Below, piece after piece: positions 5,753 through 55,372 of a stretch of DNA of 64,000 bases. Under the pieces are notes generated by a model. It worked only from the letters and a program-made list of their open reading frames with translations, ran no database searches and was not told where the DNA came from. This DNA is from a virus (taxonomy: Duplodnaviria > Heunggongvirae > Uroviricota > Caudoviricetes), in the IMG/VR virus record IMGVR_UViG_3300044613_002694, positions 30,376 to 94,375 of that record; one strand, written 5' to 3'. The translations under genes were made by a program, and so were the position numbers. Numbering within the stretch: position 1 is the first letter of the stretch; each line of letters begins with the position of its first letter.

Positions 5753-5983
5753 ATGAAAATGAAAGGTTTTACACTAATCGAGATAGTTATTACTATTGCT
5801 ATCATCTGCATTATTGGCGGTATTATACACACCAACAGTAACAATGTATCAGTTGGTATCAATGGTATGGTGGAAACACGATGTATCAATAATTTACAAT
5901 TTGTAATAGGCGAGAAAGGCAGGGTCACACAAGTCCTTGATACCAATGGCCATGGCGTTTCTTGCACCAATTCAAACATTTAA
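5753..5983 (+). CDS. small protein with type IV prepilin-like N-terminus (MKMKG/FTLIEIVITIAII)
   Basis: G-FTLIE hydrophobic segment directly after a short basic leader is the hallmark of the prepilin cleavage/methylation domain. Confidence 0.45.
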   Translation: MKMKGFTLIEIVITIAIICIIGGIIHTNSNNVSVGINGMVETRCINNLQFVIGEKGRVTQVLDTNGHGVSCTNSNI

Positions 5984-5997
5984 CAAAACATAAAAAT

Positions 5998-6666
5998 ATG
6001 ACAACTTATACAGCAACAAAATCAAATGCGATGACACGTGTTTATCGCAATATGGCCTTATCAGTATTCACTACTATGGTAGTAGCGTATATCGTTAGCC
6101 AAAGTCCAACATTAACTGCATTCTTTTTAACTGGCCCAATGAAATGGGTAGTGCTATTAGTACCACTGGCAATGGTTTTTGTTTTCCATGCAGTTTTGCA
6201 ATCAACCGAATCGCCAATTGTAGCTCATGGACTATTACAGATCTTTTCAGCAACATTTGGTATTTCCATGTCGGTGATCTTTCATCAATATAGTGCAGGG
6301 TTGATTACCAGTGCGTTCTTGGGTGCAACGGTATTGTTTACCACTATGGCAATTTACGGGATGACAACTAAACGAGATTTAACATCGATTGGTGCCTTCT
6401 TGATGGTTGGATTGATTTCTTTAATTATTGTTAGTGTTATCAATCTATTCATTGGTAATTCATTATTAGATTTGGCATTATCTGGAATTGGTGTTATCAT
6501 TTTCTTGGGATTTACCGCATATGATGCACAAAACATTCAAGAAATGGTTAGCTATGAAAGTAATACCAATCTTGAAGTAATGGGCGCTTTGTCATTGTAT
6601 CTTGACTTTGTAAATCTATTCCTGGATTTACTGAGATTATTTGGTGCTTTAGCATCCGACGATTAA
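5998..6666 (+). CDS. Bax inhibitor-1/YccA (TMBIM) family membrane protein
   Basis: ~7 predicted TM helices; C-terminal ...GALSLYLDFVNLFLDLLRLFG typical of BI-1/YccA; internal start MTTYTA. Confidence 0.6.
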   Translation: MTTYTATKSNAMTRVYRNMALSVFTTMVVAYIVSQSPTLTAFFLTGPMKWVVLLVPLAMVFVFHAVLQSTESPIVAHGLLQIFSATFGISMSVIFHQYSAGLITSAFLGATVLFTTMAIYGMTTKRDLTSIGAFLMVGLISLIIVSVINLFIGNSLLDLALSGIGVIIFLGFTAYDAQNIQEMVSYESNTNLEVMGALSLYLDFVNLFLDLLRLFGALASDD

Positions 6667-15617: not shown

Positions 15618-16949
15618 ATGACATATATTCAAGAATTAATTGCCTATATCAATTCAATGACATCAGGTAACCAAATGGTTGCTGCTGCAATAAGTGCATG
15701 GATGTTGGCAGTTTTATCGTACATGCTTAAGAATATTCCTCGGACTATTATTAACTTTTTGTATAAGCAGGGTACAACCACATTAGAATTAGATAATGCT
15801 GGTGCTAATTTTCATTTATATTTTTCGTTCCTGGCATGGTCAGGTAAACATATGAATGAACATACCTCAAGAACAATGTTTGTACAGTCTCATAACTGGG
15901 ATGCCACATCATTAGCAATCGGTCCTAGTTACGGTAATCATTTTTTCTTTTTCAAAAAACGGTTATATTGGATGACCATGACTAAAATTGAAAATACAGG
16001 CGAAACGATTAGAAAACAAATCAAGATCACCACTTATGGACGTAGCCACAATGTATTTCATGCTTTGATTGATGAATTCAAACCAGTAAACAAAACAGCC
16101 GATACAATTTACATTCATAACTGGGATGGCAAAGGTTGGGAAAATCGTGTTGAACTTCACAAACGCCCATTATCATCAGTTGTACTGAATAAAACAGTTA
16201 AAAATAACGTAACCGCTGCAATAGAAAAATTTTATGCTGATAAACAATGGTATACTGAAAATGGTATCCCATATAAACTGGGTATCCTGTTACATGGTAA
16301 CCCAGGCTGTGGTAAAACTAGTCTGGTAAAAGCATTGGCTAGTCATTACAATAGATCTATCTACGTTATTAATATCAATGCAATGTCTGATAGAACACTT
16401 GAATCAGCTATTTCCAAATCAGAAAAAGGCTCATTTATTTTGATCGAAGATTTTGATTCATCGAAAGCAGTTACCAAAAGACAACGGGTTCAGGAATCTG
16501 TTGATAAAGCAAATGGTGAAGAAAAATCTGATCCAGGTAAACAAGTGATCATCGATAACCCAATGGGTGAGTATGAGATGTTAAGTTTGACTGGTGTATT
16601 AAATGCAATTGATGGTGTTTCTTCTTTACACGAAAATATTATCATCATGACTACCAATGATGTTGACAAAATCGATCCAGCTGTGTTAAGATCTGGTCGA
16701 TGTGATGTCAGATTGGAATTACCATACTTAACTGATCCTGAAATTCGTGAATACATCAGTATTAAGTTCCCAGATGCAAATTTAGATGATTACACATTTA
16801 AAAATATCGCGGGTTGTGATTTACAAGCAACATTGATAGAACACAAAGATAGCAGTGATGGATTTTTATCATCACTAGAGGTAAAAGGAATTGCGAAGAA
16901 AAAGTTTCATTTCATGGAAATTGAAACAAAAATTCTTGACGTAGCTTAA
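15618..16949 (+). CDS. BCS1-like membrane-anchored AAA+ ATPase
   Basis: N-terminal TM (AAISAWMLAVLSYML); Walker A GILLHGNPGCGKTS; Walker B ILIEDFD; TTNDVDKIDPAVLRSGRCD sensor/arginine-finger region as in BCS1. Confidence 0.7.
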   Translation: MTYIQELIAYINSMTSGNQMVAAAISAWMLAVLSYMLKNIPRTIINFLYKQGTTTLELDNAGANFHLYFSFLAWSGKHMNEHTSRTMFVQSHNWDATSLAIGPSYGNHFFFFKKRLYWMTMTKIENTGETIRKQIKITTYGRSHNVFHALIDEFKPVNKTADTIYIHNWDGKGWENRVELHKRPLSSVVLNKTVKNNVTAAIEKFYADKQWYTENGIPYKLGILLHGNPGCGKTSLVKALASHYNRSIYVININAMSDRTLESAISKSEKGSFILIEDFDSSKAVTKRQRVQESVDKANGEEKSDPGKQVIIDNPMGEYEMLSLTGVLNAIDGVSSLHENIIIMTTNDVDKIDPAVLRSGRCDVRLELPYLTDPEIREYISIKFPDANLDDYTFKNIAGCDLQATLIEHKDSSDGFLSSLEVKGIAKKKFHFMEIETKILDVA

Positions 16950-16995: not shown

Positions 16996-18063
16996 ATGAC
17001 TTATTATTTGAAATCTGGCAACACATACAAACCAAGTGCAGAAGCATCATTGGATCTTCACTACACACTGCCAGTTGGCAATTACATTATCAAAAAAGAT
17101 CCTTTCGAAAATCTGTATTTCGAAAAAATTGACAATTTCGAATTTTCTGGAAAACGCTATGGTGACAACCAGAAGAATACCGATCGGATTATCGATACCT
17201 TTATGGATCGTGAAGTTTCAACTGGCGTAATGTTGACTGGTGAAAAAGGTTCTGGTAAATCATTGTTAGCAAAATGCTTATCAATGAAAGCAGCAGAATT
17301 AAACATCCCAACTTTAATCATTAACGATCCATGGTGTGGTGACAAATTCAACCGTTTGATCCAAGAAATTCAACAACCTTGTATCGTGTTATTTGACGAG
17401 TTTGAAAAGGTATATGATCGTGATAGCCAGGAATCAATCCTGACATTACTCGACGGCGTGTTCCCAACCAAAAAATTGTTTGTATTAACTTGTAATGACA
17501 AATGGCGCGTTGACCAACATATGCGTAATCGTCCAGGTCGTATTTACTACATGTTGGACTTCAAAGGTTTGAGCATCGAGTTCATTGAAGAATATTGCAA
17601 TGATAACTTGAAAAACAAATCACATATCGATAACATTTGCAAAATTTCATCATTATTTGCACAGTTCAACTTCGATATGCTGAAAGCGCTGGTTGAAGAA
17701 ATGAATCGTTATGATGAATCACCACAAGAAGCATTGGCTATGTTGAATGCAAAACCTGAGTTCGACGAAGGTAACAAATTCAATGTTCAATTACAAATCA
17801 ATGGTGTTACTGTTGATCCAGATGATTACTACAACGGTGACAAATGGAACGGCAATCCATTACATGGCAGATTGCGAGTTGAATATCGTACATACGAAGA
17901 TGATCCAGAAGACGGTGATTGGGTATATGCGAATTTCACACAAACTGATTTGAAAAACGTGGATGCACTTAATGGCAAGTTCGTCTTCATGAATGAAAAA
18001 AATGAAATCATGACCTTGACCAAAGTGAAAGAAACACAATTCAACTTTCACGACGCATTTTAA
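16996..18063 (+). CDS. second AAA+ family ATPase
   Basis: Walker A GEKGSGKS; Walker B CIVLFDEFE; RNRPGR arginine-finger-like segment. Confidence 0.6.
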   Translation: MTYYLKSGNTYKPSAEASLDLHYTLPVGNYIIKKDPFENLYFEKIDNFEFSGKRYGDNQKNTDRIIDTFMDREVSTGVMLTGEKGSGKSLLAKCLSMKAAELNIPTLIINDPWCGDKFNRLIQEIQQPCIVLFDEFEKVYDRDSQESILTLLDGVFPTKKLFVLTCNDKWRVDQHMRNRPGRIYYMLDFKGLSIEFIEEYCNDNLKNKSHIDNICKISSLFAQFNFDMLKALVEEMNRYDESPQEALAMLNAKPEFDEGNKFNVQLQINGVTVDPDDYYNGDKWNGNPLHGRLRVEYRTYEDDPEDGDWVYANFTQTDLKNVDALNGKFVFMNEKNEIMTLTKVKETQFNFHDAF

Positions 18064-22752: not shown

Positions 22753-23775
22753 ATGAACAAAAAATATGACAATGCAGTAGTAATCATGCGTGGGCAACCA
22801 CTTCACAACGCTCATTTAGAACTAATCAATAGAGCAGCAGAATTGGCAAAAAATGTCATTATCTTGCTTGGCTCATCAAAACAACCAAGAACATTTAAGA
22901 ATCCATTTACATTCAGTGAACGTTGTGGAATGATCTTACGTTCAATTAAAATCGAACCAGCCGTTCAGGTTTATATCGAACCATTAGTGGATATTCCTTA
23001 TAATGATCAGGTTTGGGTTTTAAACGTTCAGGATATTGTTGCCGAATGTACGCATGGTAATAGTATTTGCTTACTCGGTCATAATAAAGACAGTAGCACT
23101 GGTTATTTAAAAATGTTTCCACAATGGTCATTTGAAGATTTTGACAATGTTGCAAATCAATTAAATGCTACTGATATCCGCGATCTTTACTTTAAGCGTC
23201 CATATAATCAGGATTATATCAAAGGTGTAGTTCCAGATAATGTATTAGAGTTTTTAAATGAATTCCATGATACACCAGATTACAATGATATTCTCGAAGA
23301 AAAAGAATTTATTGAAAAATATAAACAGCAATTTGCTGGATTGCAATATGCACCAGTGTTCGTGACGGTTGATTGTTTGATCATCCAATCTGGGCATGTT
23401 CTCATGATTAAACGAAGATCGAATCCTGGTAAAAATTTAATGGCCCTTCCTGGTGGCTACCTTAATGCCGGGACTGATCGTTCACTATTAGATGCTGCTA
23501 TACGTGAACTCAAAGAAGAAACCGGTATCAAAGTTCCTGAACCTGTATTACGCGGTAGCATTATTCAAAGTAAGGTATTTGATGCAATAGATCGAGATCC
23601 ACGTGGGCGTGTGATCACCCATGCCTTCCATATTGAGCTACCAGCTGGACCGTTGCCGAAAGTAAAAGGAATGGATGATGCGCTAAAAGCAAAATGGGTG
23701 CCGTTGTCTGAAATTACCAGTGAAAACTGTTATAGTGATCATGCAGAAATCATTAAAGTATTAGTTGGTATTTAA
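22753..23775 (+). CDS. natV: bifunctional NMN adenylyltransferase / Nudix hydrolase (NadM-Nudix, phage NatV-like)
   Basis: N-terminal nucleotidyltransferase HxGH-type motif (GQPLHNAHL); C-terminal Nudix box-like REL(K)EETGI. Confidence 0.7.
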   Translation: MNKKYDNAVVIMRGQPLHNAHLELINRAAELAKNVIILLGSSKQPRTFKNPFTFSERCGMILRSIKIEPAVQVYIEPLVDIPYNDQVWVLNVQDIVAECTHGNSICLLGHNKDSSTGYLKMFPQWSFEDFDNVANQLNATDIRDLYFKRPYNQDYIKGVVPDNVLEFLNEFHDTPDYNDILEEKEFIEKYKQQFAGLQYAPVFVTVDCLIIQSGHVLMIKRRSNPGKNLMALPGGYLNAGTDRSLLDAAIRELKEETGIKVPEPVLRGSIIQSKVFDAIDRDPRGRVITHAFHIELPAGPLPKVKGMDDALKAKWVPLSEITSENCYSDHAEIIKVLVGI

Positions 23776-30346: not shown

Positions 30347-30410
30347 CTCTAATTTCTAGTTGACACATTAAAAGAAAGTAGACATTATATCTACTTTCTT
30401 TGGAGGATTT

Positions 30411-30640: not shown

Positions 30641-32104
30641 ATGATAGAACATCTAAAACAACAAAATTTTATCCTACAAGCCGATGCCTACAAAGCTACA
30701 CATTGGAAGCAATTAAAAAGATCAACTAAAAAATCTTATTCGGTTATCGTCCCACGCAAAGTTAGCAAATATTCGGATATCATAGTTGCAATGGGGCAAT
30801 CAATGGTTGCTTCATATTTTGCATCTGTCCGTATCACCGATGAAATGATCGATGAAGCTGAATTGGAAATTACCGAACAAGGCTATGATTTCTACCGAGC
30901 TGGATGGGAATATATTGCACACGAATTAGACGGTAAATTACCATTAGCAATTTTTGGTGTTGAAGAAGGTCGTATCGTACAACCACAAACGCCTATTTTA
31001 GGCATTATTAATACCGATGACCGTTCAGCTTGGTTACCTGCATACTCGGAAACTATTGCACAAGATATTATCTGGACAATGAGTTCAGTAGCAAGTTTAT
31101 CGTTAGCAATTAGAAAAACATTTGCACATTATATCGAAGAAACTGGTGCTCACATGAATCAGTTGAACACCCGTTGTCATTTCTTTGGTGATCGTGGTGG
31201 TAGTTCTCCTGAATCTGCAGTACTTACTGCCATAGCACATGCCGTAATTTTTGATGGCAGTGATTGTTTACAAGCCAATCGTTATATCAAACGTTTGTAT
31301 AACACTTCAAAAGCATATACTTCAAGTATTGATGCAACTGAACACAGTACAATGTGTGATAATTCTGACGCAACTACCAAAGATGATTACGGTGCAGCAG
31401 TAATGGCAGTTGAATTACTGGAACAAGCAGTTGAACGCACTAAAACCCGTGGAATTGGTATTCCAATGATTAGTGCAGTTATTGACACATACGATAGTCG
31501 TAGATTTGTTAGAGATTATGTTGGTGGTCCTGAATTAAAAGAACGTGTTATCAATAGCGGTGGTACATTTGTGTTTCGTCCTGATTCTGGTGATATTACA
31601 GTAGAGCCAGGTATGGTCGGCAATGACATTGAATATGCATTTGGTGTAGAAGTCAATGAAAAAGGCTACAAAGTTATCCCTTGCTATACCGCAGTATTAC
31701 AAGGCGATGGTATTAAATGGAATACTTACGAAAGTGTAATTAAAGGATGGGTTGATGCTGGTTTCAGTATTGATAACTTTGCTATTGGTATGGGCGCTGG
31801 ATTATCAAATGGTACTTCAAGAGACGATTTCAGTTTCAGTATGAAAAGTATTGCAACATTTGATGGGCTGCGTTGGACTCGTAAATTAAAAGAACCAAAA
31901 ACCGATCTTGGTAAAAAATCATTATCAGGATTAGTTAGATGTCGTGAAGATGCCAATGGTAACTTGGAAGTATACGATGCTATACACGAAGGCAACGAGT
32001 ACGGTTTTATGTATCCAGGTGCTGGTTGGAAGTTATGGTTTGAAAATGGCCATAGAAAATATCGTCAATCTTTTGATGAAGTCCGTGAATGGGCTTCAAA
32101 GTAA
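30641..32104 (+). CDS. nadV: nicotinamide phosphoribosyltransferase (NadV/NAMPT)
   Basis: 487 aa; typical NAMPT length; motifs consistent with the NAPRTase family (GxGxP...DTYD... , FGVEEGR); strong RBS AAGGAG. Confidence 0.7.
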   Translation: MIEHLKQQNFILQADAYKATHWKQLKRSTKKSYSVIVPRKVSKYSDIIVAMGQSMVASYFASVRITDEMIDEAELEITEQGYDFYRAGWEYIAHELDGKLPLAIFGVEEGRIVQPQTPILGIINTDDRSAWLPAYSETIAQDIIWTMSSVASLSLAIRKTFAHYIEETGAHMNQLNTRCHFFGDRGGSSPESAVLTAIAHAVIFDGSDCLQANRYIKRLYNTSKAYTSSIDATEHSTMCDNSDATTKDDYGAAVMAVELLEQAVERTKTRGIGIPMISAVIDTYDSRRFVRDYVGGPELKERVINSGGTFVFRPDSGDITVEPGMVGNDIEYAFGVEVNEKGYKVIPCYTAVLQGDGIKWNTYESVIKGWVDAGFSIDNFAIGMGAGLSNGTSRDDFSFSMKSIATFDGLRWTRKLKEPKTDLGKKSLSGLVRCREDANGNLEVYDAIHEGNEYGFMYPGAGWKLWFENGHRKYRQSFDEVREWASK

Positions 32105-33436: not shown

Positions 33437-34228
33437 ATGAAATACACACTAAAATTGACAGCTTTAGCATTAGTCGCAGCCACTTTATCTGGTTGCGTTC
33501 GTGTAGAATCTGGTCACATCGGTATCCGTAGAGATATCAACAAACAAATCGTACCAACTGAACTACAACCCGGTTCATGGAATCAAGTTATTATTGGTGA
33601 TGTTTTAACAGTACCAGTTAAAGATGTTGCTGTGAAAATCGAAGATTTATCACCGGTTGCAAAAGACAATTCAACCATGAAAGATTTTGATTTGGTTGTA
33701 ATTTACAATGTGAATCCTAATTCAGGTGCAGAATTGTACACCACTAAAAACTCAGCATTCCATGCATATGACGGCAGTGATAGTTACTTAATGTATAACT
33801 ACATTGTCAATGTAGCAAGAAATGCGGTATACAAATCTGCTCGGAAATACGAGGCGTTGGAAATGAATGATGCACGACCAGCAATCGAGCAGGAAGTAAA
33901 AGAACTGATTGTTAAATCTCTCGAAGAAGAACATTTAGCAACTGATTTGACCATTAGCCAGGTCATGGTCAAAAGTATCGTTCCAGCTGATTCAATTGTA
34001 CAATCTGCAAATGAGTTGGTTCGTGCTAAAAACTCTTATAAACAAAAAGAGATTGAAGTACAAACTGCTAAACAAGAAGCCGAACGTATCTCAGTATTAA
34101 ATAGCAATTCTGGGGCTATTGAATATATGCGAGCAATGGCAATGATGAATATTTCAGAAGGTATCAAAGAAGGCAAGGTGCAAACAATTGTTGTCCCTTC
34201 CAATTTCACCGCTCTGATGATGAAATAA
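33437..34228 (+). CDS. SPFH/band-7 (prohibitin/HflC-like) lipoprotein
   Basis: Lipobox LSGC; domain architecture and C-terminal coiled-coil AKQEAERI consistent with SPFH. Confidence 0.5.
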   Translation: MKYTLKLTALALVAATLSGCVRVESGHIGIRRDINKQIVPTELQPGSWNQVIIGDVLTVPVKDVAVKIEDLSPVAKDNSTMKDFDLVVIYNVNPNSGAELYTTKNSAFHAYDGSDSYLMYNYIVNVARNAVYKSARKYEALEMNDARPAIEQEVKELIVKSLEEEHLATDLTISQVMVKSIVPADSIVQSANELVRAKNSYKQKEIEVQTAKQEAERISVLNSNSGAIEYMRAMAMMNISEGIKEGKVQTIVVPSNFTALMMK

Positions 34229-37830: not shown

Positions 37831-39012
37831 CTAAAGGACGAGGCTTCCTGATTCATTGATACCTAGTAATTGACCAATCATTACTAATTGATCATACCGG
37901 GGATCTCCACAGGCATTAAGTCGGGCAGTTCCTGCCCTATCAATATTAATCGCGGCATTTAAGTCGCGATCTATTACTTCTCCACATGACTTGCAGTCAT
38001 ATGTTCTACTTGATAACTCGATGTCTTGTATACTACCACAGTTTGAACAAGTCTTACTAGACGGGTAATAACGGTCAATTATTACCGTTTTACCACCGTA
38101 TAATTCAGACTTATATTCAATAAACTGTCGAAGCATAGCAAATCCGTTATCTTTGATTATATGACCATTCCATTGTTGTATTGATTTGACATTTAAATCT
38201 TCTAATGAAATGACATCATAATCATCGACAAGCTGACGAGAAAGTTTATGAAAGTAATCTAATCGTTTTAGTTTAACACGATAATTAATTTTAGCTAACT
38301 TCAACTGAGCTTTCAAGTAATTATGACTGCCTTTTTTCTTACGAGATAGCTTTCGTTGTAATTTCTTAATTTTCGCTTGGTTTTCACGAAGAAATTTAGG
38401 AATTAGGTAACGAATGCCATTACTTAACACGTATTCAGATGAATTGATGTCAATACCAACTGAATTAGTAGTAGTAGTTCTCGTAGGTAATTTTGGTTTT
38501 GTACATGTAACTACAACAAACCAATTATGGGCTTCTTGTTTTATTTGACATGTCTTGAAATCACTAGGTAATGCCCTATGATAACGGCATTTAATCCATC
38601 CGATATTAGGTATTTTAAATTTACCTGAATTGAAATCACAGTTTCTATCAGAATTGACCATAGCTAGAGTAAATGATCCGGAAAAGTTTCGTTTCTTTTT
38701 AAACTTTGGAAATCCTTTAGTAGCTTTAGAATTCTTTTTAAAACTAGCTTTCAATGCCACATCAAGATAGCGGATAGTTTGTTGTAAGCTCGTTGATGGT
38801 GAAGATTGCAACCATTCAGTAGCTTTTTTCAAACTGGTTAAATCTGCACTGTTTTTATTGAAAAACCTGAACTTGTTATCGATCTGGTATTGTTGCATTT
38901 CTTGATTTAAGAAATGATTCCAGACATAGCGATTGTTACCAACTACTTGGTTTAATAATTGGATCTGTTCCTGTGATGGGTACAATCGATATTTATATTT
39001 CAGGTTTTGCAT
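37831..39012 (-). CDS. tnpB: TnpB/OrfB RNA-guided-nuclease-like protein (IS605/IS1341 family)
   Basis: N-terminal YKYRLYPSQEQ...; C-terminal RuvC-III plus zinc finger CSNCGS...CKSCGEVIDRDLNAAINI; characteristic of TnpB. Confidence 0.75.
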   Translation of the reverse strand: MQNLKYKYRLYPSQEQIQLLNQVVGNNRYVWNHFLNQEMQQYQIDNKFRFFNKNSADLTSLKKATEWLQSSPSTSLQQTIRYLDVALKASFKKNSKATKGFPKFKKKRNFSGSFTLAMVNSDRNCDFNSGKFKIPNIGWIKCRYHRALPSDFKTCQIKQEAHNWFVVVTCTKPKLPTRTTTTNSVGIDINSSEYVLSNGIRYLIPKFLRENQAKIKKLQRKLSRKKKGSHNYLKAQLKLAKINYRVKLKRLDYFHKLSRQLVDDYDVISLEDLNVKSIQQWNGHIIKDNGFAMLRQFIEYKSELYGGKTVIIDRYYPSSKTCSNCGSIQDIELSSRTYDCKSCGEVIDRDLNAAINIDRAGTARLNACGDPRYDQLVMIGQLLGINESGSLVL

Positions 39013-44774: not shown

Positions 44775-45037
44775 CTCAGTAAAAACCAGGTATAATTTGC
44801 ATCGTCCTCAAATTCTGCATATTTTGGCTCATCGTATGACGGCTTAATCTTACATTTATTTTCTTGTTCAAAATGCTTATAAACTAGTTCCATTTGTTTA
44901 GAGAATACCTGATCAAGATTGCCAGTGAATTCAACCATCGGCGAATGTGCAACCGAATATTTACTGGCTTTACGAACAGCGACATCCCTAGTAAGCGATA
45001 ATTTTTTCATCAAGCACCCCATCTTATAATAAACCAA
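44765..45037 (-). CDS. family A small paralog (...DDANYTWFLLRWS)
   Basis: Motif. Confidence 0.55.
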   Translation of the reverse strand: MVYYKMGCLMKKLSLTRDVAVRKASKYSVAHSPMVEFTGNLDQVFSKQMELVYKHFEQENKCKIKPSYDEPKYAEFEDDANYTWFLLRWS

Positions 45038-45366
45038 TTTCTGTCAGCTGCATTTCGGAAAATAAATCGATCATCAGGTACTAATTTCCACCGATCACCT
45101 AGAATTTCTCCGAATACTTCTTCACACCATTTAACGCAGTCTTGAACATGGATCTTACTACTTGGACTAACCCAATATACATAATCTTGGTAATCAGTAT
45201 AATCATCGCCTTGACGCAATGGTCTTGTATCATATCGCGTTCTCAATGAAAATATCTGACCAGCTTGGCTTGTCATTGGTTGAACCCCCACGATATTTTG
45301 TGCAATCAATTCTGGTTGTACTCTGCGTATCATTGACAAAATTGATTGTTTTGATAACTCTTTCAT
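45010..45366 (-). CDS. family A small paralog (...AADRNWFIIRWGA)
   Basis: Motif. Confidence 0.55.
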   Translation of the reverse strand: MKELSKQSILSMIRRVQPELIAQNIVGVQPMTSQAGQIFSLRTRYDTRPLRQGDDYTDYQDYVYWVSPSSKIHVQDCVKWCEEVFGEILGDRWKLVPDDRFIFRNAADRNWFIIRWGA

Positions 45367-45844: not shown

Positions 45845-46146
45845 CGTAATGCAAACCAGTTCTTATCTTCTTCACTTTTTATAAGTATTCTAGCAGGAGT
45901 TCCCTCATATGGACTAGTCCAACACCATCTTTCATTGACTATTGGCTTGTTATGAATCATTAACTCCATGAATTCATTTAATGAGCAACTAGGACCAAAT
46001 GTTTCCCAACACCATTGACGCATTTCACAGAATTTTGCTGTTCGATCACCTTGTTGCCAAGAAGGTTGCCATCTGAAAACCATGCTGTATTTGAAGTATT
46101 GATGACCGGTGTATCGCTTGTCTAACTTTGATATCGCTATATTCAT
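45835..46146 (-). CDS. family A small paralog (...EEDKNWFALRWG)
   Basis: Motif. Confidence 0.55.
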   Translation of the reverse strand: MNIAISKLDKRYTGHQYFKYSMVFRWQPSWQQGDRTAKFCEMRQWCWETFGPSCSLNEFMELMIHNKPIVNERWCWTSPYEGTPARILIKSEEDKNWFALRWG

Positions 46147-46204
46147 GTATGAATTATACTCCTTCTTATGGTGGATGTCAATAAATAATTACAGAGGCAT
46201 ACAA

Positions 46205-47017
46205 ATGAGAATACTAGTCACCGGTGCCAACGGATTTGTTGGACGTAATATGCTCGAATGGCTATCCCAAGAAGAATTCTGGGAAATCGAGACATGGGAA
46301 TGGGATCCTAATAATTTACCTGATGTAAAAAAATATAAATGGGTCATACATCTGGGTGCTGTTACAGATACCAGTGATGCTGACGTTGATACGATTATAC
46401 ATAAGAACTATGAGTTCAGTCAATGGCTTTTTACTGAATGCAATAAGAATAAAGTGCATATGCAATATGCCAGTTCCAGCGCTGTTTATGGAAATAATAA
46501 GAATTTTTCGGAATTTGCTCCTTGTCATCCAGAAACACCATATGCGTGGTCGAAATACTTATTTGATAGATGGGTATTGCAGCAAGAGCATAACATCTAT
46601 GTTCAAGGATTTCGATACTTCAACGTGTATGGAAAATATATGCATACCAAAGGAGAACGAGCTGATATCTTATGTAAGTGGCGAGAAGAGGCCAAAAATG
46701 AAGGAAAGATCACTATTTGGGCAAATGCTGATCGCATCAAACGTGATTGGGTTTGGGTCGGAGACGTATGCAAATTACATATTGATTTCATTAAAACTAT
46801 CAATGGTTCAGGCATCTGGAATGTTGGCTCTGGACTATCACACAGTTATTTAGATTTAGCGGAAGAAATTGCAATTCAAGAAGGGGTACAAATTGAATTT
46901 GCCTCACCAAAACCAACTGAACAATATAATACAAAAGCCGACTTAACCTTATTGAAATCAACTATCGGAAAACGCAAATGGTTATCAGTTTACGAATGGA
47001 TTGATCGTGGATTGTGA
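46205..47017 (+). CDS. NAD-dependent sugar epimerase/dehydratase (short-chain dehydrogenase fold)
   Basis: MRILVTGANGFVGRN Rossmann GxxGxxG; YAWSKYLFD (YxxxK catalytic motif); track ORF 46109 trimmed to the ATG after a GAGG RBS. Confidence 0.6.
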   Translation: MRILVTGANGFVGRNMLEWLSQEEFWEIETWEWDPNNLPDVKKYKWVIHLGAVTDTSDADVDTIIHKNYEFSQWLFTECNKNKVHMQYASSSAVYGNNKNFSEFAPCHPETPYAWSKYLFDRWVLQQEHNIYVQGFRYFNVYGKYMHTKGERADILCKWREEAKNEGKITIWANADRIKRDWVWVGDVCKLHIDFIKTINGSGIWNVGSGLSHSYLDLAEEIAIQEGVQIEFASPKPTEQYNTKADLTLLKSTIGKRKWLSVYEWIDRGL

Positions 47018-47041
47018 TAAATACTTGACAGAGGAAGTAAC

Positions 47042-47401
47042 ATGAGAGCAAGTGAATTTTTAAATGAAGATAATTTTGGAGTAGGAAAAAAACGCCCTGC
47101 ACGACCTGGATCTCGCGAAGACCAAGTTGGTCCACGTGGTCACAAACCAGAAACGCAATATAGTGTGGATGAAGAATTCGAAATTGATGAAGCTGGAAAG
47201 GCTCCTAAAAAGCTGTGTCTTTCTAAAAAAACTGATGGTGAATTAGGTGCAAGCCAATTATCATCATGTCAAGCACAGGGCTTACGTAAAAGAAATACAA
47301 AACGAAAATTTAGAATTGGTAAGAAAGTTCAATCAATTGATGGTAAATATGTGCGTTCGGCTGACTACGGAGGCCCTTTGCCCAAATGGAAAGGTAACTA
47401 A
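47042..47401 (+). CDS. basic small protein with MRASEF N-terminus (candidate packaged internal protein)
   Basis: Lys/Arg-rich; N-terminal motif shared with 55387 and 62917. Confidence 0.45.
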   Translation: MRASEFLNEDNFGVGKKRPARPGSREDQVGPRGHKPETQYSVDEEFEIDEAGKAPKKLCLSKKTDGELGASQLSSCQAQGLRKRNTKRKFRIGKKVQSIDGKYVRSADYGGPLPKWKGN

Positions 47402-48024
47402 TGCGATTTCGTGAATTTTCAAAATTAACAGAATTTGATGCGGGTAGCGCGATATCATCTGCAGGTAATATTATTAGTATGTTATCTAATCCACTCGGTG
47501 CATTAGATAATATTACTGGTACTACTTCTACCGATTCGGCTGGTGCTGGATCATCGACTGCTGATATAGCAACTATTCAAGACCCAGATTTTAACAGAAA
47601 ATTAGAAAAGGTTGCAAATAAGTTAGGTGTTAGAGCTAATGATTTGCTTGCTATTATGAAGCAAGAATCAGGTGTTGATCCATCAAGAGTTAATTCAACA
47701 TCTAACGCAACTGGCCTTATTCAATTCATGCCAGATACTGCTAGAAGACTTGGAACTACTACCGATGCATTAGCTAAAATGTCAGCTGTTGAACAACTAG
47801 ATTATGTTTACTTATATTACAAAAGTGTTAAACTTAAACCTGGGTCCGATGCCGGTGATATGTATGTGGCAACATTTTATCCAGCCGCTGCAGGACAACC
47901 TGATAATTATGTAATCAGTTCACGCGGAAACAAAGTTTATAACCAAAATGCAGGATTAGATAGAAATAAAGATGGAACAATCACTGTGGGAGATGTAAAA
48001 AAATCTGTATCAAGGTTTGTATAG
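47401..48024 (+). CDS. lytic transglycosylase (SLT-domain) protein
   Basis: ESGVDPSRVNSTSNATGLIQFMPDTARRLG resembles the SLT catalytic region (E...GLMQ.MP.TA). Confidence 0.5.
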   Translation: MRFREFSKLTEFDAGSAISSAGNIISMLSNPLGALDNITGTTSTDSAGAGSSTADIATIQDPDFNRKLEKVANKLGVRANDLLAIMKQESGVDPSRVNSTSNATGLIQFMPDTARRLGTTTDALAKMSAVEQLDYVYLYYKSVKLKPGSDAGDMYVATFYPAAAGQPDNYVISSRGNKVYNQNAGLDRNKDGTITVGDVKKSVSRFV

Positions 48025-48036
48025 TTAAATAACTTT

Positions 48037-48585
48037 ATGAATTTAATAGGTAATTTAATTATATCCCCGCCATCAGTAAAAGGCAATTTCTGGTATAAAA
48101 CAGTCGCAATGATTGTTGAACATCATAATCAAGGAAGTATTGGTATAGTTCTTAATAAACGAAGTAACTATACTATAAATGAATTAGGTGATCAACTTGA
48201 TTTAGATTTTGATATACCAGGATATGTCTATATAGGTGGTCCAGTCAATCCGAATAGTATTAGTTTAATTCATTCTAATGAATGGAGTTGCGATAATACA
48301 CTTCGGCTTAATGAAAACTTCTCATTAAGCTCATCAAAAGAAATCATGCGACGATTTTCTAATAATGACTTACCAAAAAAGTGGAGGTTATTTTTTGGAA
48401 TTTGTGGATGGCCACCTGGTAAACTACATAAAGAAATTAATGGCATTGAACCAGAAGATAAGAACACTAGTTGGTGTTTTACCAATAGCGACACAGATTT
48501 AGTGTTTAATCATGACACCAAAGTACAATGGAATAAAGCATTAGAAAAAGCTGCAGAAGAATTTTCACAAAGCATATTATCATAA
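48037..48585 (+). CDS. YqgE/AlgH-family (UPF0301) protein
   Basis: PSVKGNFWYKTVAMIVEHHNQGSIGIVLNKRSN...IGGPVNPNSISLIHS pattern. Confidence 0.5.
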   Translation: MNLIGNLIISPPSVKGNFWYKTVAMIVEHHNQGSIGIVLNKRSNYTINELGDQLDLDFDIPGYVYIGGPVNPNSISLIHSNEWSCDNTLRLNENFSLSSSKEIMRRFSNNDLPKKWRLFFGICGWPPGKLHKEINGIEPEDKNTSWCFTNSDTDLVFNHDTKVQWNKALEKAAEEFSQSILS

Positions 48586-48594
48586 GGATATATA

Positions 48595-49005
48595 ATGAAA
48601 AATTGGTTATGGAAAATATCTGGATTCATATTACTAGGTATTGGGTATCTCGGTATTATAACCCCAGGATTGCCATTCAGTCCATTTATTGTCGGTTCTG
48701 CTATATGTTTTAGCAAAAGTAGTCCAGCTATGCATAAATGGTTATATAATCACAAATTTTTTGGTCCGTTTTTAAGTAATTGGGTCAATAATAAAGTGTT
48801 TCCAACAAAAATGAAATACATGATGTTAGCTGTCATGTCTAGTTCATTAGTTATTTTATGGTTTACTACACACAATTCTACCACAATCGCATATTCTGGT
48901 GGTTTTATGATATTAGTCTCAATATGGGCTTGGAGATTTCCTGGAAGTCTTAATGAATATTATGAAAGAGAATCATCTGGTAAGAAAATAGGCTGGTTCA
49001 AATAA
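48595..49005 (+). CDS. YbaN-like (DUF454) inner membrane protein
   Basis: GLPFSPFIVGSAICFSKSSPAMHKWLYNHKFFGPFLSNW signature and TM helices. Confidence 0.55.
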   Translation: MKNWLWKISGFILLGIGYLGIITPGLPFSPFIVGSAICFSKSSPAMHKWLYNHKFFGPFLSNWVNNKVFPTKMKYMMLAVMSSSLVILWFTTHNSTTIAYSGGFMILVSIWAWRFPGSLNEYYERESSGKKIGWFK

Positions 49006-49239
49006 TGTAAAAAGATAAATATTAGAATTACAAAAATAAGGTAGTCCTAATGAGAAATAATATTTTACCACCCGTAAAACGAGGCGATACTTGGACATTT
49101 ACGTTCTCGTGGAAAAATCAAAAACACACCAATTGACTTGACTGATTGCACTGTATTAATAGAAGCAATTAAAGAACAACAACTGCATATCGATAAATTA
49201 GATAAAGATATTGAACAATTGAAATTAAAAGGATAAATT

Positions 49240-49599
49240 ATGACAATTACATATACATGGGAAGTAACCAGTTTAAAAACTACTACAATTGGATCTACTG
49301 CAAATGTAGTAGTACAAGCCTATTGGAAAAAAATTGGCACTGATGAAAATGGTAATGAAGGCATCTTTAATGGTGCTACTCCATTTACCGCAGATTCTAC
49401 TGATAACTCAGGTCCTTTTATTCCATTTTCAGGATTAACTGAAGAAAATGTACTAGATTGGATTAAATCCACCGTCGTTGGACATTACGAAGAACATGTT
49501 AATGAACAAATTTTAAAGCAAATTATCGATAAGATTAATCCAGTTATAGATACAGCTATGCCATGGGTAACTCCAGAAATTTCTGATCATTTTGTGTAA
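49240..49599 (+). CDS. hypothetical protein
   Basis: Track ORF. Confidence 0.4.
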   Translation: MTITYTWEVTSLKTTTIGSTANVVVQAYWKKIGTDENGNEGIFNGATPFTADSTDNSGPFIPFSGLTEENVLDWIKSTVVGHYEEHVNEQILKQIIDKINPVIDTAMPWVTPEISDHFV

Positions 49600-49634
49600 C
49601 TCCATAAATAAAAATTTAAAACAAAGGATTAAAA

Positions 49635-49811
49635 ATGGATAAAACACTAGTAACAGTAACCCTTGATGTAAACCAAGTAAATTTAATATTTGCAGCATTA
49701 ACCGATCAGCCATATAAAAATGTTGCAAAATTAATTGCTGAATTGGATGAACAACTAAAAACACAGTTGCAACAACACCCATCTGGGCCATTAACCGATA
49801 AATTAGTATAA
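49635..49811 (+). CDS. hypothetical small protein (58 aa)
   Basis: Manual translation MDKTLVTVTLDVNQVNLIFAALTDQPYKNVAKLIAELDEQLKTQLQQHPSGPLTDKLV. Confidence 0.35.
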   Translation: MDKTLVTVTLDVNQVNLIFAALTDQPYKNVAKLIAELDEQLKTQLQQHPSGPLTDKLV

Positions 49812-49827
49812 AAACGGAGTATTATAA

Positions 49828-50643
49828 ATGAAAAAATTATTTGCATTAATCTTATTAATGTCATCAGGAATGGTGCATGCTTGGGAACAAGTTGCCCCAT
49901 ATCCAATTGAAAAATGTCAAGTACAATCACCGTATGGCTTTCCACAAACTTCTAAACAAGGTGTAGCAATATGTCGTGCTGGTTATGTTACATTAAACGA
50001 TACTACTGCAAAATTACCAGTTTGGGTTTCTTATACATTATATCCTGAATATGCGTTAGGATGTGTTCCACGTTCTAATGGCTTTGCCCCCGATCAAAGC
50101 TTACCAAAAGGTAGTAGGGCAGAGCTAATCGATTTTAAAGGCAGCGGCTATGATATTGGTCACGTAGTACCCAATGCAGATCAATCAAGGTTCGATCAAA
50201 CAGAAAAAGAAAGTTTCTTATTAACTAATATGGTGGCTCAATTACCAGGAACTAATAGAGGAATAATTAAATTGACCGAAACTAATATTCGTGGATGGGT
50301 AACACAGAGAAATCATCCATATGTAATTTATTCTGGTCCATTATATGGACCAGGTGATAAAACTATTGGTTTAAACCAAATAGTCGTTCCTCATGCATTT
50401 TATAAAATAGTAATTGACACAACAACTAATGAAGTTGCTGGATTTCTAATACCACATGTCGGAAATCAAGGAAATGACTTGACAAAAGTTAGAGCGCCAA
50501 TTGATCAAATCCAACAATTATCAGGAGTCCAATTTGCATACCCAGCGAATGCGGTTGAATTACCATTAAATTATTTATGGCCTGTTGATTATAAAGCATT
50601 AACCGAAGCGAAAAGAGCTGCATGCAAAGGCAACGCTAACTAA
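49828..50643 (+). CDS. secreted DNA/RNA non-specific endonuclease
   Basis: Signal peptide MKKLFALILLMSSGMVHA; GYDIGHVVPNADQ resembles the DRGH-type active site of NUC-family nucleases. Confidence 0.5.
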   Translation: MKKLFALILLMSSGMVHAWEQVAPYPIEKCQVQSPYGFPQTSKQGVAICRAGYVTLNDTTAKLPVWVSYTLYPEYALGCVPRSNGFAPDQSLPKGSRAELIDFKGSGYDIGHVVPNADQSRFDQTEKESFLLTNMVAQLPGTNRGIIKLTETNIRGWVTQRNHPYVIYSGPLYGPGDKTIGLNQIVVPHAFYKIVIDTTTNEVAGFLIPHVGNQGNDLTKVRAPIDQIQQLSGVQFAYPANAVELPLNYLWPVDYKALTEAKRAACKGNAN

Positions 50644-51611
50644 CCAGGTTTATATTTACAATTATCAAAATGCCAGCGTTTTGCGTTCGATGCATTGCTG
50701 GCATTACCACAATACGGACAAATCAATATTTCCTGTGGTGTTAGTTTTTTGCCCTTTCTTGACAAACTCATTTTCAATTTAGATTCTTCGGTATGTGTTC
50801 TACCGGCCATGGCCCCTACTTTTCCATACATTGGGTTATTTTCACCAGTGTTAGCTTCACTCAGTTTTTCCTTGAGCTCTTTTGCTCGTTCTACCCCGTA
50901 TATTTCATCGAAGGTCTTTCCTTTACGCAATGCAATCGTTTCCGGAGAATGTTTCTTACCCGTAAAAGCACCAGGTTTTCCATATCTATGATTTTTATCA
51001 CCTAACATTTTTATACGTTTTTTCTCAGATATTTCTTTAGCCTTTTCTTCACCGAATATTTCATTATAACTTCTCCCTAACCTAGATGTTTTGTGAATAA
51101 TCTTCATCGGTTTTAATGATTCTTTATAAATCCATGTCTTTTTTAATTTATTGATTTTTTCTAATGCTTTTTCTTCCCCATATAATTCAATATATGTTTT
51201 TCCCTTATTATTTGATAGTTGACCTTTATTTCGTATACTAATCATTTGTTTTTGCTTATCGGTCCATAATCTTCCTAATGTACCATCCCCACCGAGGGTC
51301 ATATTGTATCCAGAATGGTAACTATCATATAAATTGATAAAATATGTCTCCATTGCATTTTTTAAATAATCCCCTTCTAACGATTGATATATTATTTCAA
51401 AGGTAAATTTATCGATGCCATACTTTTTAATAGCATAGTATAAATGCGAATTTAGTTTTCTTGAGTTTCTAGTATGTTCTACGATCCTTCTTTCAAAGTT
51501 ATTTGTAAAACCTATATAAATTTTCTCATTAATTGTATTTGTAATTTTATAAATGGAATAAATATCCATGTTGATACTCCTTTTCAGTATTAAAGTAGAT
51601 GGGAACGCCAA
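50640..51611 (-). CDS. GIY-YIG homing endonuclease with repeated NUMOD-like modules
   Basis: IYSIYKITN...KIYIGFTNNFERRIVEH GIY-YIG core; repeated (E)IYGxE(R/K)AKE modules. Confidence 0.65.
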   Translation of the reverse strand: MAFPSTLILKRSINMDIYSIYKITNTINEKIYIGFTNNFERRIVEHTRNSRKLNSHLYYAIKKYGIDKFTFEIIYQSLEGDYLKNAMETYFINLYDSYHSGYNMTLGGDGTLGRLWTDKQKQMISIRNKGQLSNNKGKTYIELYGEEKALEKINKLKKTWIYKESLKPMKIIHKTSRLGRSYNEIFGEEKAKEISEKKRIKMLGDKNHRYGKPGAFTGKKHSPETIALRKGKTFDEIYGVERAKELKEKLSEANTGENNPMYGKVGAMAGRTHTEESKLKMSLSRKGKKLTPQEILICPYCGNASNASNAKRWHFDNCKYKPG

Positions 51612-51713: not shown

Positions 51714-51935
51714 ATGAAGATTAGTGAATTAATAGAGACATCAAACTATCTAGCACAGTTAAAAAGTGATGCGAAAAAACACTATCCAGAAACAGATACT
51801 GAGGATGAATCATTATTACAGTTTTTAGCTAGAAGTGTACTTCATGCAAAAGATGATGATGCTAAACAAAATAATGATATAGCAATTCTAAAATCTAAAA
51901 TAAATAATATTGAAAGAATAATTAACAACAAATAG
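51714..51935 (+). CDS. hypothetical protein
   Basis: Track ORF. Confidence 0.4.
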   Translation: MKISELIETSNYLAQLKSDAKKHYPETDTEDESLLQFLARSVLHAKDDDAKQNNDIAILKSKINNIERIINNK

Positions 51936-51944
51936 GAAAATACA

Positions 51945-52229
51945 ATGGCATTACAAATTAATATTAATACTGAATTCGGTACTGAAGAATCACCAGTATA
52001 TGCTCAATATTGGAATATTGGCGCAGTACAAGAGGATTTCAAAGGAAAGGGCACTGAAATCACTATCTATGGATATGCATCCAAAGAAGCAAGAGATAAT
52101 GAAAAACAACCACTATCTGCCGGAAAATTTCAAATAACTGGTGAAGAATATGTTGCTGGTGCAGATCGTGCAACATTATATGAAATCATCAAGCAACGCC
52201 CAGAATTCACTGGTGCAGAAGACTGCTAA
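51945..52229 (+). CDS. hypothetical protein
   Basis: Track ORF. Confidence 0.4.
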   Translation: MALQININTEFGTEESPVYAQYWNIGAVQEDFKGKGTEITIYGYASKEARDNEKQPLSAGKFQITGEEYVAGADRATLYEIIKQRPEFTGAEDC

Positions 52230-52241
52230 CCAGTCATACTC

Positions 52242-52266
52242 GATATCCCTAATTGTTAGGGATATC
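52242..52266. terminator. bidirectional hairpin between convergent genes
   Basis: GATATCCCTAaattgtTAGGGATATC perfect 10-bp stem; no strong T-run. Confidence 0.4.
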
Positions 52267-52331: not shown

Positions 52332-53519
52332 TTACAAAATTGATTTTAATGCATCGATTAAATCTTCAATCATTCCATCATCATGAAACGGAGTTGGTGC
52401 AAATCGCAATCGTTCAGTGCCAACATCTACTGTTGGAGAATTAATTGCTTGTACGTAAATACTATAATCATTTAATAATCTATCACTAATTTCTCTAGCT
52501 CTTTTAGCATCACCAATCAAAACAGGTACGATATGTGTAACTGAATCCATCACTGGTATTCCAGCTTCCTTCATCATTTTTTTTAATTTACTAGCACGTT
52601 CTTGGTGTTTTTCTCTTAATTCATTATGAGCTTTTGAATATTTAACTGCAGCTAATGCGCCAGCGACAATAACTGGGCTCAATGACGTACTAAAGATGAA
52701 TCCATCCGCGATGCTTCGAATAGCATCAATTACTATAGAATCCCCTGCGATATAACCACCTTGTACACCAAATGCTTTGCCAAGCGTACCATTAACAATA
52801 TCAACTCGATCTTGCAAATCCATTTCTTCTAACTCACCAGCACCAGTAAATCCTCTAACTCCTACTGCATGAACTTCATCACAGTATGTAATAGCATTAT
52901 ATTTGTCAGCTAAATCACAAATTTCTTTAATAGGACTAATATCACCTTCCATACTGTATATGCTTTCAAATACAATACAGGGAATATTTTCATTTTGAAC
53001 CGATTTCTTCAAACAATTTTCCAACTCTACTAAATCATTATGCTTGAATATTTGTTTAGATGCACGACTATGAACAATACCCATTATTAGACTATTATGG
53101 TTTTTGCTATCACTTATAAATTCAATATTTGGGATAATTTTAGCCAATGCTATTAAACTTGACGTATTCGCTACATAAGCCGAAGTAAATAATAATGCAC
53201 TCTCTTTTTTATGCAATGATGCCAATTCATGTTCTAATGCAACATGATAATGGGTAGTACCTGATATATTTCTCGTACCACCGGATCCAGCACCTGTCAT
53301 ATCTAATGCTGTTCGCATTGCATCTAGTACTACTTTATGCTGTCCAAGTGATAGATAATCATTACTACACCAATTGACAATATTTTTAATGGCATATGGC
53401 CCATACCAGATTGCATTTGGAAATTTACCTTGTTCTCGTAGTATGTCATTGAAAACTCTATACTTTCCAGTTTCTTTTAAATCATTAATAAGTTTATTGA
53501 ATGGTTCTTTGTTAATCAT
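52332..53519 (-). CDS. hemA: 5-aminolevulinate synthase (alpha-oxoamine synthase family, PLP-dependent)
   Basis: YRVFNDI...NWCSNDYL...[11 protein letters not shown]...[14 protein letters not shown]...CDEVHAVG...GTLGKAFG (PLP lysine)...[26 protein letters not shown] match the ALAS signature closely. Confidence 0.7.
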
Positions 53520-53556
53520 ACCGATATTTAACTAAATATACAAAAGGAAAAAAATT

Positions 53557-53769
53557 ATGGCAGAAAATGGTATTTCAACACACATCCCAAAATCCGAACG
53601 TAGAGATTTAAAATTAGAATTGGCTGAATTAAAACGTCAAGGAAAACTTATTAATACTGATCCAGTTGATATTACTAAAATTGGTTATAGACCATATAAT
53701 GTTTATAATAGCCCAGGAACAGTTAGTCCAGCTACAGGACATCCATGGGAATTAGGTCCAGAGGTTTAA
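53557..53769 (+). CDS. hypothetical small protein
   Basis: Track ORF. Confidence 0.4.
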   Translation: MAENGISTHIPKSERRDLKLELAELKRQGKLINTDPVDITKIGYRPYNVYNSPGTVSPATGHPWELGPEV

Positions 53770-53770
53770 G

Positions 53771-55372
53771 ATGACATATATTCACCCAAACGATAATAAT
53801 TTAAAAAATCTGCATAAAGCTATGCAATATAATGAGTCTGGTGAACCAGTTGTTCGCACACATGTTGATGGAATATCATTACAAGGCGATGTTCTGGTTG
53901 ATAAGGTTAGAATTCAAATCGATACATTAGGGAATGTATGGGATGAAAATCATTCTGCACCAGTATCAATCGGTACTAATGGGCAAGTAACATTAAAAAC
54001 GAGTTCTGCAGTTATAGGAAAAGTTCAGCAAGATGGTGATTGGACTGTTAAACAAGGTACTACCCCATGGGCAATTAGTGATAATGGTGGTTCTATTACA
54101 GTGGATGGCAGTGTTTCAATTAGCAGTTTACCAGAAGTTGAAATAAAAAATGATAGTGGAAATCCTATCCCTATTTCATTTTCAACTGGTGCCCTAGATG
54201 CATTCGGTAGACAAAGAATTTCAGAACCTTTTACTTTAGGTGATTATAAGCACTTATATGGTATCGACCCCGCTTTTATTGATTATGCTGGAAATGGTGG
54301 TGCCATTGAATTTGTAAAAAATAAAGCATGTTGTACATTAACCACTACTTCTAATCCATCTAGTTTTATCATCCATCAAACAAAATTTTATCATCATTAT
54401 ATGCCTGGTAAATCTCAAGTAATTTTTAGTAGTATAAATTTTGGAGCAGCTACACCGAACGTAGTTAAACGAACTGGATACTTTGATGACAACGATGGAA
54501 TTTATTTCGAACAAGCAGGCGATGGGACTTTATCATGGGTAATAAGAAGTTTTGTTTCTGGCGCTCCCATTGAAGTCAGGAAAACTCAATCACAATGGAA
54601 TTTAGATACTGTATCATGGTTGAACATACTTAATACACAATTAGTAGCGATTGATTTCCAGTGGCTGGGCGTTGGTAGAGTTAGGGTTGGATTTGCACAT
54701 GATGGTGGTGTAGTTTATGTTCATGAATTTTTACATAGCAATAATTTACCAACTGTTTACATGAGTAATCCAAATCTTCCCGTTAGATGCGAAATAAGAA
54801 ATATTGGTACAACTACGGGTGGATCTATGGATCAAATATGTTCAACAGTATTCAGTGAAGGTGGCTATGTTGAAGCGGGACAGGATTGGGCTGCTACTAC
54901 ACCTACATTAAAAGTGATAAATGCTGGAATTACTGCGCCAGTTATGGCAATTAGATTAAAAAATACATTTCATACATATTCAAATAGAATGATTGTTCGC
55001 ATGGGTAATTTGAATATATTCAGTGATGGTGTTAATATTAAATGGAGACTGATAAAATTACCAGCACAAGCATTTCTAACAGGTAATTCATGGGTAGATG
55101 TGCATAATGATTCAGGTATTCAATATAATTCTACTGCTACCGCATGGACAGATGGGCAAGAAATGGATAGTGGATTTGTTGGTGCATCTACCCAAGGTAG
55201 TCAAAAAGCAGGAGGCGCACCGGCTAGTAACATCCCATCATCTGCAAAAAAGAATTATATTGTGCAAAACTTTGACAGTACGGATTCCGAGATATTTCTA
55301 GTAGTTGCAACTAATCTTGGCTCACAATCAACTAATGTTGGTGTTAGTATGCAATGGCGTGAAATCTATTAA
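53771..55372 (+). CDS. putative virion structural protein (533 aa)
   Basis: Start of a long co-oriented block with fibre-like proteins. Confidence 0.45.
   Translation: MTYIHPNDNNLKNLHKAMQYNESGEPVVRTHVDGISLQGDVLVDKVRIQIDTLGNVWDENHSAPVSIGTNGQVTLKTSSAVIGKVQQDGDWTVKQGTTPWAISDNGGSITVDGSVSISSLPEVEIKNDSGNPIPISFSTGALDAFGRQRISEPFTLGDYKHLYGIDPAFIDYAGNGGAIEFVKNKACCTLTTTSNPSSFIIHQTKFYHHYMPGKSQVIFSSINFGAATPNVVKRTGYFDDNDGIYFEQAGDGTLSWVIRSFVSGAPIEVRKTQSQWNLDTVSWLNILNTQLVAIDFQWLGVGRVRVGFAHDGGVVYVHEFLHSNNLPTVYMSNPNLPVRCEIRNIGTTTGGSMDQICSTVFSEGGYVEAGQDWAATTPTLKVINAGITAPVMAIRLKNTFHTYSNRMIVRMGNLNIFSDGVNIKWRLIKLPAQAFLTGNSWVDVHNDSGIQYNSTATAWTDGQEMDSGFVGASTQGSQKAGGAPASNIPSSAKKNYIVQNFDSTDSEIFLVVATNLGSQSTNVGVSMQWREIY

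Follow-up and report, generated by a model that had tools for sequence, protein, structure and literature searches.

Chen et al. 2020 (bioRxiv 10.1101/2020.02.13.942896) were the first to list the gene for 5-aminolevulinate synthase (ALAS) in large phages from freshwater, and the viral gene was named valaS by Wegner, Roitman et al. 2024 (Nat Commun 15:8783; PMC11480375), where it was described from marine and freshwater phage contigs, either alone or together with hemO and pcyA/X. In that study the phage homologue CB_2 vAlaS was found experimentally to make 5-aminolevulinate (ALA), and many vAlaS proteins were without the haem-feedback residues His342 and Cys400 (PMC11480375). Freshwater contigs from Grosse Fuchskuhle, mostly of 318-374 kb, were reported to carry AlaS, HemO and a ferredoxin-dependent bilin reductase (FDBR) at non-adjacent positions (PMC11480375), and viral alaS was a marker auxiliary gene in a 2026 estuary study in which its transcripts were detected (PMC13390420). 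Here we describe a valaS locus in a stretch of 64,000 nucleotides (the whole of which is referred to as the window) from the Caudoviricetes record IMGVR_UViG_3300044613_002694 (positions 30,376 to 94,375 of that record). The open reading frame (ORF) at 52332..53519, on the minus strand, is in all probability (roughly 0.88) a functional valaS and an auxiliary metabolic gene of a T4-related freshwater phage of about 367 kb, a reading carried by its family assignment, its intact active site, its location in a phage, purifying selection and its membership of the published vAlaS clade.

The ORF has an ATG start, and the codon for the Schiff-base lysine, Lys248, lies at 52778-52776. The predicted translation of 395 amino acids includes GTLGKAFG (the lysine block for pyridoxal 5'-phosphate, PLP) and LRFAPTPFH. 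An earlier note on this DNA, made from the sequence alone, had described a minus-strand ALAS of 395 amino acids at 52332-53519, and all of the ALAS blocks it quoted were found in the translation.

The protein was scored against the curated NCBIfam models, where it reached 563.3 bits with TIGR01821 (5-aminolevulinate synthase) against a cut-off of 338.55, and fell below the cut-off of each sibling model (KBL, 317 vs 460; BioF, 313 vs 426; SPT, 229 vs 640; CqsA-type synthase, 169 vs 428). Pfam returned the generic PF00155 fold only. A search of solved structures gave ALAS 7x98 (E 6e-128) and R. capsulatus 2bwn (E 4e-123) as the best matches, followed by mitochondrial ALAS, with KBL appearing from 5e-62. 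Identity was 52-55% to alphaproteobacterial ALAS (54.8% to Caulobacter and 52.7% to R. capsulatus) compared to 30-33% for KBL and BioF.

Residues were mapped onto R. capsulatus numbering in a MAFFT alignment which included 19 clade members and 23 cellular ALAS. Thirteen residues of R. capsulatus ALAS were found to be conserved in the window protein, namely R21, N53(54), T82(83), N84(85), H141(142), S189, D214, H217, T245, K248, T278, T363(365) and R372(374) (R. capsulatus numbers in parentheses), and all were invariant in the cellular ALAS and the clade members, save for S189 (18/19 clade members). From the R. capsulatus structure literature we take H142, S189, D214, H217, T245 and T278' to be the PLP-binding set, while N54 and R374 presumably bind the carboxylate of glycine and R21 and T83 that of succinyl-CoA. 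The window protein resembles R. capsulatus ALAS/HemA (PDB 2BWN) and PDB 7X98 in its full-length identity of 52-55% and in its residues for PLP, glycine and succinyl-CoA; K248 is named as the Schiff-base lysine in PMC11480375.

Bootstrapped neighbour-joining trees were built with Salmonella KBL, E. coli and Acinetobacter BioF and two unassigned alpha-oxoamine synthase sequences as outgroups; the trees held no SPT sequence, and SPT was set aside by hidden Markov model (HMM) score only. The ALAS clade holding the valaS protein was recovered in 100/100 bootstraps. Within it the protein fell in a viral clade (94/100 and 96/100), apart from all sampled alphaproteobacterial ALAS and sister to them, with no donor lineage resolved, and it joined the published GROS21 sequences in a freshwater jumbo-phage subclade (100/100). 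A placement within KBL, BioF or SPT, which the earlier note had named as the outcome that would speak against ALAS, was looked for and was not borne out by either the HMM scores or the tree. Judged from its sequence, the product of 52332..53519 is a true 5-aminolevulinate synthase.

The published vAlaS sequences were rebuilt from Supplementary Data 5 of PMC11480375 for comparison with the window protein. Identity was 76.5%, 74.7% and 73.9% for three Grosse Fuchskuhle freshwater vAlaS (GROS21), 62.3% for a marine vAlaS and 55.6% for the experimentally tested CB_2 vAlaS. The window protein shares with the published vAlaS the enzyme family, the viral clade, the GROS21 subclade, intact catalytic residues and a missing His342/Cys400 haem site, and its phage resembles those of Grosse Fuchskuhle in size (about 367 kb, compared to 318-374 kb) and in its background, which is likewise that of a T4-related myovirus. 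The window protein differs in that its exact sequence and its contigs are absent from the tables of PMC11480375, where a search of the supplements also found no contig or sample identifier of the window, in that valaS stands alone in 64 kb without hemO or pcyA, and in its distance from CB_2. Compared with alphaproteobacterial ALAS, the window protein is phage-encoded, is without the Cys400 C-terminal tail, carries Arg where His342 would be and belongs to a viral clade outside the sampled cellular ALAS. The haem-catabolic genes of cyanophages and pelagiphages (ho1/hemO, pebS and pcyA/pcyX) likewise place tetrapyrrole flux under phage control, but they consume haem, whereas valaS opens the pathway, and none of them lies within the window. 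The window gene is thus not new, but a further member of a published and laboratory-tested class, and the type of freshwater jumbo phage that carries it has been described before.

The window is approximately 99% identical to one end of a 367,267-bp JGI metagenome contig (Ga0451721_0000001; JGI 3300043415), save for two small indel blocks. At 48597-49878 the window (compared with 13641-13737 of contig piece L001) adds genes for a DUF454-like protein of 136 amino acids and a protein of 119 amino acids, while the 367-kb contig instead carries an extra NUMOD3 homing endonuclease elsewhere (L001 14949-15701). These differences are indels between strains, for which small mobile genes are responsible. 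Homologues of valaS with 76-87% identity were found on contigs of 105, 334 and 356 kb, which share the same neighbourhood of virion genes, then ALAS, then genes for Endonuclease_NS, DUF454, DUF179, lysozyme and epimerase, and 414 viral contigs in IMG/VR encode a valaS relative. The features surrounding the gene are as follows.

52332..53519, minus strand: valaS, a 5-aminolevulinate synthase of 395 amino acids (PLP-dependent alpha-oxoamine synthase), from the ORF, TIGR01821, solved structures, residues and trees
53520..53556, no strand: divergent intergenic region of 37 bp between valaS and the plus-strand gene at 53557-53769, containing an inverted repeat
53557..55372, plus strand: gene for a 70-amino acid protein, then a virion structural protein of 533 amino acids (phrog_1645), at the start of a run of virion/tail-fibre-like genes
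52242..52266, no strand: hairpin in the gap where valaS and the ORF at 51945-52229 converge, from the fold
51714..52229, plus strand: two small ORFs of 73 and 94 amino acids downstream of valaS, a variable insert
50640..51611, minus strand: GIY-YIG/NUMOD3 homing endonuclease, from Pfam on the 99% identical contig
46109..50643, plus strand: conserved block on the 3' side of valaS with NAD-dependent epimerase, 119-amino acid protein, SLT lysozyme, DUF179, DUF454-like 136-amino acid protein and Endonuclease_NS, from Pfam on related contigs

valaS is a single reverse-strand gene within a plus-strand block. The earlier note had placed it between convergent genes, which is correct at its 3' end, where it faces the plus-strand ORF at 51945-52229, but not at its 5' end, where it diverges from the plus-strand gene at 53557-53769 and 37 bp separates the two start codons. 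The 533-amino acid protein begins 252 bp past the valaS start codon, beyond the 70-amino acid gene; it matched phrog_1645, annotated as 'virion structural protein', at E 1e-98, shares 51% identity with a structural protein of the virion of S-RIM32, a T4-like cyanophage, and has matches in 157 phage records, mostly of cyanomyophages. The genes of phage type in the window include PHROG virion structural proteins, AAA ATPases, an IS605-type transposase, nicotinamide phosphoribosyltransferase (NAMPT) and a NadR-like NMNAT/Nudix protein.

Neighbouring genes were counted in the best 80 of the 414 IMG/VR valaS loci. Members of the block at 46109..50643 recurred in 28-61 of these, while the homing endonuclease, a variable mobile gene 720 bp downstream of valaS, was present in 7, and the ORFs of 73 and 94 amino acids in only 6 and 3, respectively. 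The most constant neighbour of valaS was the DUF454-like gene (48595-49005, plus strand; 61/80 loci), which on a marine 335-kb contig (L007 6191-6631) comes immediately after valaS, in the same orientation and overlapping it by 4 nt; the pattern hints that the two genes are functionally linked.

The G+C content of valaS (33.6%) is close to that of the window (34.5%), and the ratio of nonsynonymous to synonymous substitution rates (dN/dS) was 0.11 for valaS compared with a homologue of 87% identity and 0.125 for a pair of marine relatives. Because of its virion context, recurrent synteny, matching G+C content and low dN/dS, valaS is an old, constrained resident of the phage lineage under purifying selection, and neither a recent capture nor a contaminant. 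The earlier suggestion that the gene is phage-encoded is accordingly upheld by the virion genes, the homing endonucleases, the jumbo viral contigs and the conserved synteny.

The GenBank phage collection (50,697 records) was also searched. No protein match at the level of ALAS was obtained there, the best being 36% identical and all being KBL or BioF, mostly in host DNA present through contamination or transduction, and at the nucleotide level nothing in the collection matched 48-58 kb of the window. Since none of the 50,697 records carries ALAS, valaS is still known only from uncultured phages. The same figure agrees with the earlier remark that ALAS is uncommon among the auxiliary genes of phages, but the remark is right only in part, given the 414 IMG/VR contigs and the publication of the class as valaS.

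With regard to its role, all tetrapyrroles derive from ALA, the committed precursor, which is normally also the rate-limiting one. The window enzyme would act as a PLP-dependent homodimer which condenses glycine and succinyl-CoA to ALA and, in the infected cell, would add a source of ALA outside the transcriptional control of the host and probably outside haem feedback. The supply of haem (possibly of cobalamin or bilins) could in this way be sustained or raised while host gene expression is shut down, and in a host using the C5 pathway a phage ALAS would also spare Glu-tRNA. Both the activity of the window protein and a physiological benefit to the phage are expected on the published model, and the proposal made in the earlier note, that the gene boosts haem or cofactor supply, agrees with the published hypothesis (PMC11480375).

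Several points weigh against this reading. Activity is extrapolated from CB_2, a homologue which is only 55.6% identical, and no other tetrapyrrole gene was found within the 64-kb window. The enzyme may either supplement a Shemin pathway of the host or bypass a C5 pathway; a Bacteroidota host (no Shine-Dalgarno use) is unlikely, as the window genes show purine-rich Shine-Dalgarno enrichment. At the haem-feedback site, the position of His342 is occupied by R340 in the window protein, and the chain ends before the C-terminal tail that bears Cys400 (R. capsulatus numbering). His342 was, however, kept in only 2/23 sampled cellular ALAS, and its loss is therefore not specific to phages. Because this loss is common in cellular ALAS, the residues only faintly suggest that the window enzyme is insensitive to haem feedback.

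Other explanations for the gene were weighed alongside. The protein might be another alpha-oxoamine synthase (KBL, BioF, SPT or CqsA) or a cyclising ALAS of the C5N pathways, given that PF00155 is common to all of these enzymes, with E-values of 1e-50 to 1e-95, and that the cyclising enzymes are closely related to ALAS, so that an HMM alone may not separate them. This is highly improbable in view of the sibling models scoring below their cut-offs, the contrast in identity (30-33% vs 52-55%), the 100/100 ALAS clade, the retention of R21 and T82 for binding of the succinyl carboxylate and the production of ALA by the clade member CB_2. Genes for cyclising ALAS of the C5N pathways cluster with those for an acyl-CoA ligase and an amide synthetase, and neither partner was found in the Pfam annotation of the called genes covering the window. 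It is scarcely credible that valaS is instead a cellular gene, present through host DNA, mis-assembly or a mis-binned bacterial contig, even though genes of 67-68% identity occur on contigs deposited as metagenome-assembled genomes (MAGs) of Neomarinimicrobiota, Alphaproteobacteria and Crocinitomicaceae. These three GTDB 'MAG' contigs (L007, PBPT01000016.1, 335 kb, Neomarinimicrobiota; L006, CALCTU010000161.1; L029, JBDNIA010000508.1) carry genes which group inside the viral clade, and that of 335 kb has the DUF454-like neighbour seen in the window; they are probably mis-binned jumbo-phage contigs, as has likewise been argued for a 'Marinovum' record (PMC11480375). Furthermore, valaS of the window is flanked by virion and homing-endonuclease genes, has the G+C content of the phage and lies in a gene order that is shared by dozens of viral contigs obtained independently in many samples.

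Two alternatives concern the use to which an active enzyme would be put. That valaS serves counter-defence, or manipulates a haem-dependent process of the host (for example by flooding it with porphyrin precursors), is improbable: the strong conservation of the gene and its upstream element indicates only that it is important to the phage, no recognisable defence or anti-defence genes were linked to it in the annotated neighbourhood, and an intact biosynthetic enzyme is read most simply as serving biosynthesis. It is possible, though we consider it doubtful, that the ALA mainly feeds a phage route of HemO and FDBR (PcyA/X) rather than respiration, passing from ALA through haem and biliverdin to phycocyanobilin or phycoerythrobilin for use as chromophore, as signal or for iron release; this would be a variant of the haem-supply explanation and not an exclusive alternative to it. 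The published Grosse Fuchskuhle contigs, which fall in the same vAlaS subclade, each carry HemO, FDBR and AlaS (without forming a cassette), and at least 7 IMG/VR contigs with a valaS of 74-76% identity have an adjacent hemO-FDBR pair approximately 30 kb 5' of valaS. The equivalent site in window coordinates would be at about 83 kb, past the end of the window. On the other hand, a tblastn search with published phage HemO and FDBR found neither gene in the window or in the 10-kb flanks of valaS at the 80 related loci. Among the hemO matches listed, which in two scans of IMG/VR proteins took in 80 of 144 relatives, were neither the 367-kb contig nor several other valaS contigs long enough to be expected to reach that far (one of 356 kb and one of 95.9 kb, the latter having ALAS of 90% identity), and the 367-kb contig was likewise not among the matches from a protein database, a metagenome scan and a degenerate DNA pattern.

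At the hemO loci on contigs that also carry valaS (L172, L173, L188, L190, L191, L243 and L244), FDBR is approximately 42% and hemO 68-73% identical to GROS21, and the bilin reductase of those phages is thus much more divergent than its hemO partner.

The 37-bp region upstream of valaS contains an inverted repeat, ATATTTA-GT-TAAATAT, at 53524-53539, whose TAAATA stops 5 nt short of the valaS ATG, and the gene is not preceded by a Shine-Dalgarno sequence. The upstream regions of related loci L037-L116 (49 distinct sequences) were compared, and TATTTA-N1-6-TAAATA was present in 42/49, where shuffled sequences would be expected to give 0.01. TAAATA ended no more than 14 nt from the start codon in 43/49, mostly at 5-8 nt with a mode of 7. 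As the surrounding sequence has diverged, the palindrome stands out from it as conserved.

TAAATA resembles what we take to be the core of T4-type late promoters, and a 7-nt spacing could suit the -10 box of a leaderless mRNA, and it may also be an operator. We propose, rather tentatively, that the palindrome consists of back-to-back T4-type late-promoter-like boxes or serves as the operator of a regulator that responds to haem or iron, or that this lineage is without hemO/pcyA and brings a Shemin-type enzyme to a C5-pathway host. If the boxes are late-promoter-like, the valaS transcript would be leaderless or nearly so and timed with the virion genes; if they form a haem/iron operator, the phage would have the first tetrapyrrole step under its own regulatory logic. 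A general phage promoter was ruled out for the window, where the palindrome has three sites only, those other than the valaS site both falling within genes.

On the 3' side of valaS, the hairpin at 52242-52266 reads GATATCCCTAA-CAA-TTAGGGATATC, with a perfect stem of 11 bp and a loop of 3 nt, and adjoins the two small ORFs, which were found in 3-6 of 80 relatives. The gene had previously been credited with its own hairpin; the structure is real, but it is not a conserved feature of the gene, a hairpin of at least 8 bp being present in only 6/52 distinct 3' regions of relatives, with unrelated sequences. It is specific to this strain. Its candidacy as a valaS terminator was rejected, given that it has no T-run, that a terminator scan makes no call and that it is not conserved.

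A number of other genes were observed in the window. An NAD+ salvage pair, consisting of a NadR-like cytidylyltransferase/NMNAT-Nudix fusion and NAMPT (22753-23775 and 30641-32104, both plus strand), is a second cofactor-supply module of the window. An IS605-family OrfB/TnpB transposase at 37831-39012 (minus strand), with HTH_OrfB_IS605, OrfB_IS605 and Cas12f1-like TNB domains, lies amid small early-type genes; near-identical copies in the genome of a bacterium, should there be any, might point to the host. Adjacent AAA+ ATPases are encoded at 15618-16949 and 16996-18063 (both plus strand; phrog_7485 and phrog_2376), the first with a BCS1_N-like N-terminus. Genes of host-physiology type were identified by Pfam on near-identical contigs at 916-1488, 3864-4385, 5962-6666 and 33437-34228 (all plus strand), these being HD_4 (a ppGpp-hydrolase-like HD domain), NADAR, a Bax1-I membrane protein and Band_7/SPFH. 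Finally, an ORF of 118 amino acids at 45010-45366 (minus strand) matches PF07068 (T4 Gp23 major capsid family) and is far too short for a capsid protein.

That phages control the committed step in making tetrapyrroles implies that the supply of haem, cobalamin or bilins limits phage production in aquatic bacteria, a point that has already been made and experimentally tested (Wegner et al. 2024). What the present locus adds is modest, namely one more member of the class and the observations that valaS is widespread in IMG/VR (414 contigs), that it is long resident and constrained in its phage lineage, and that it is preceded by a conserved palindrome, which could guide work on the expression of valaS.

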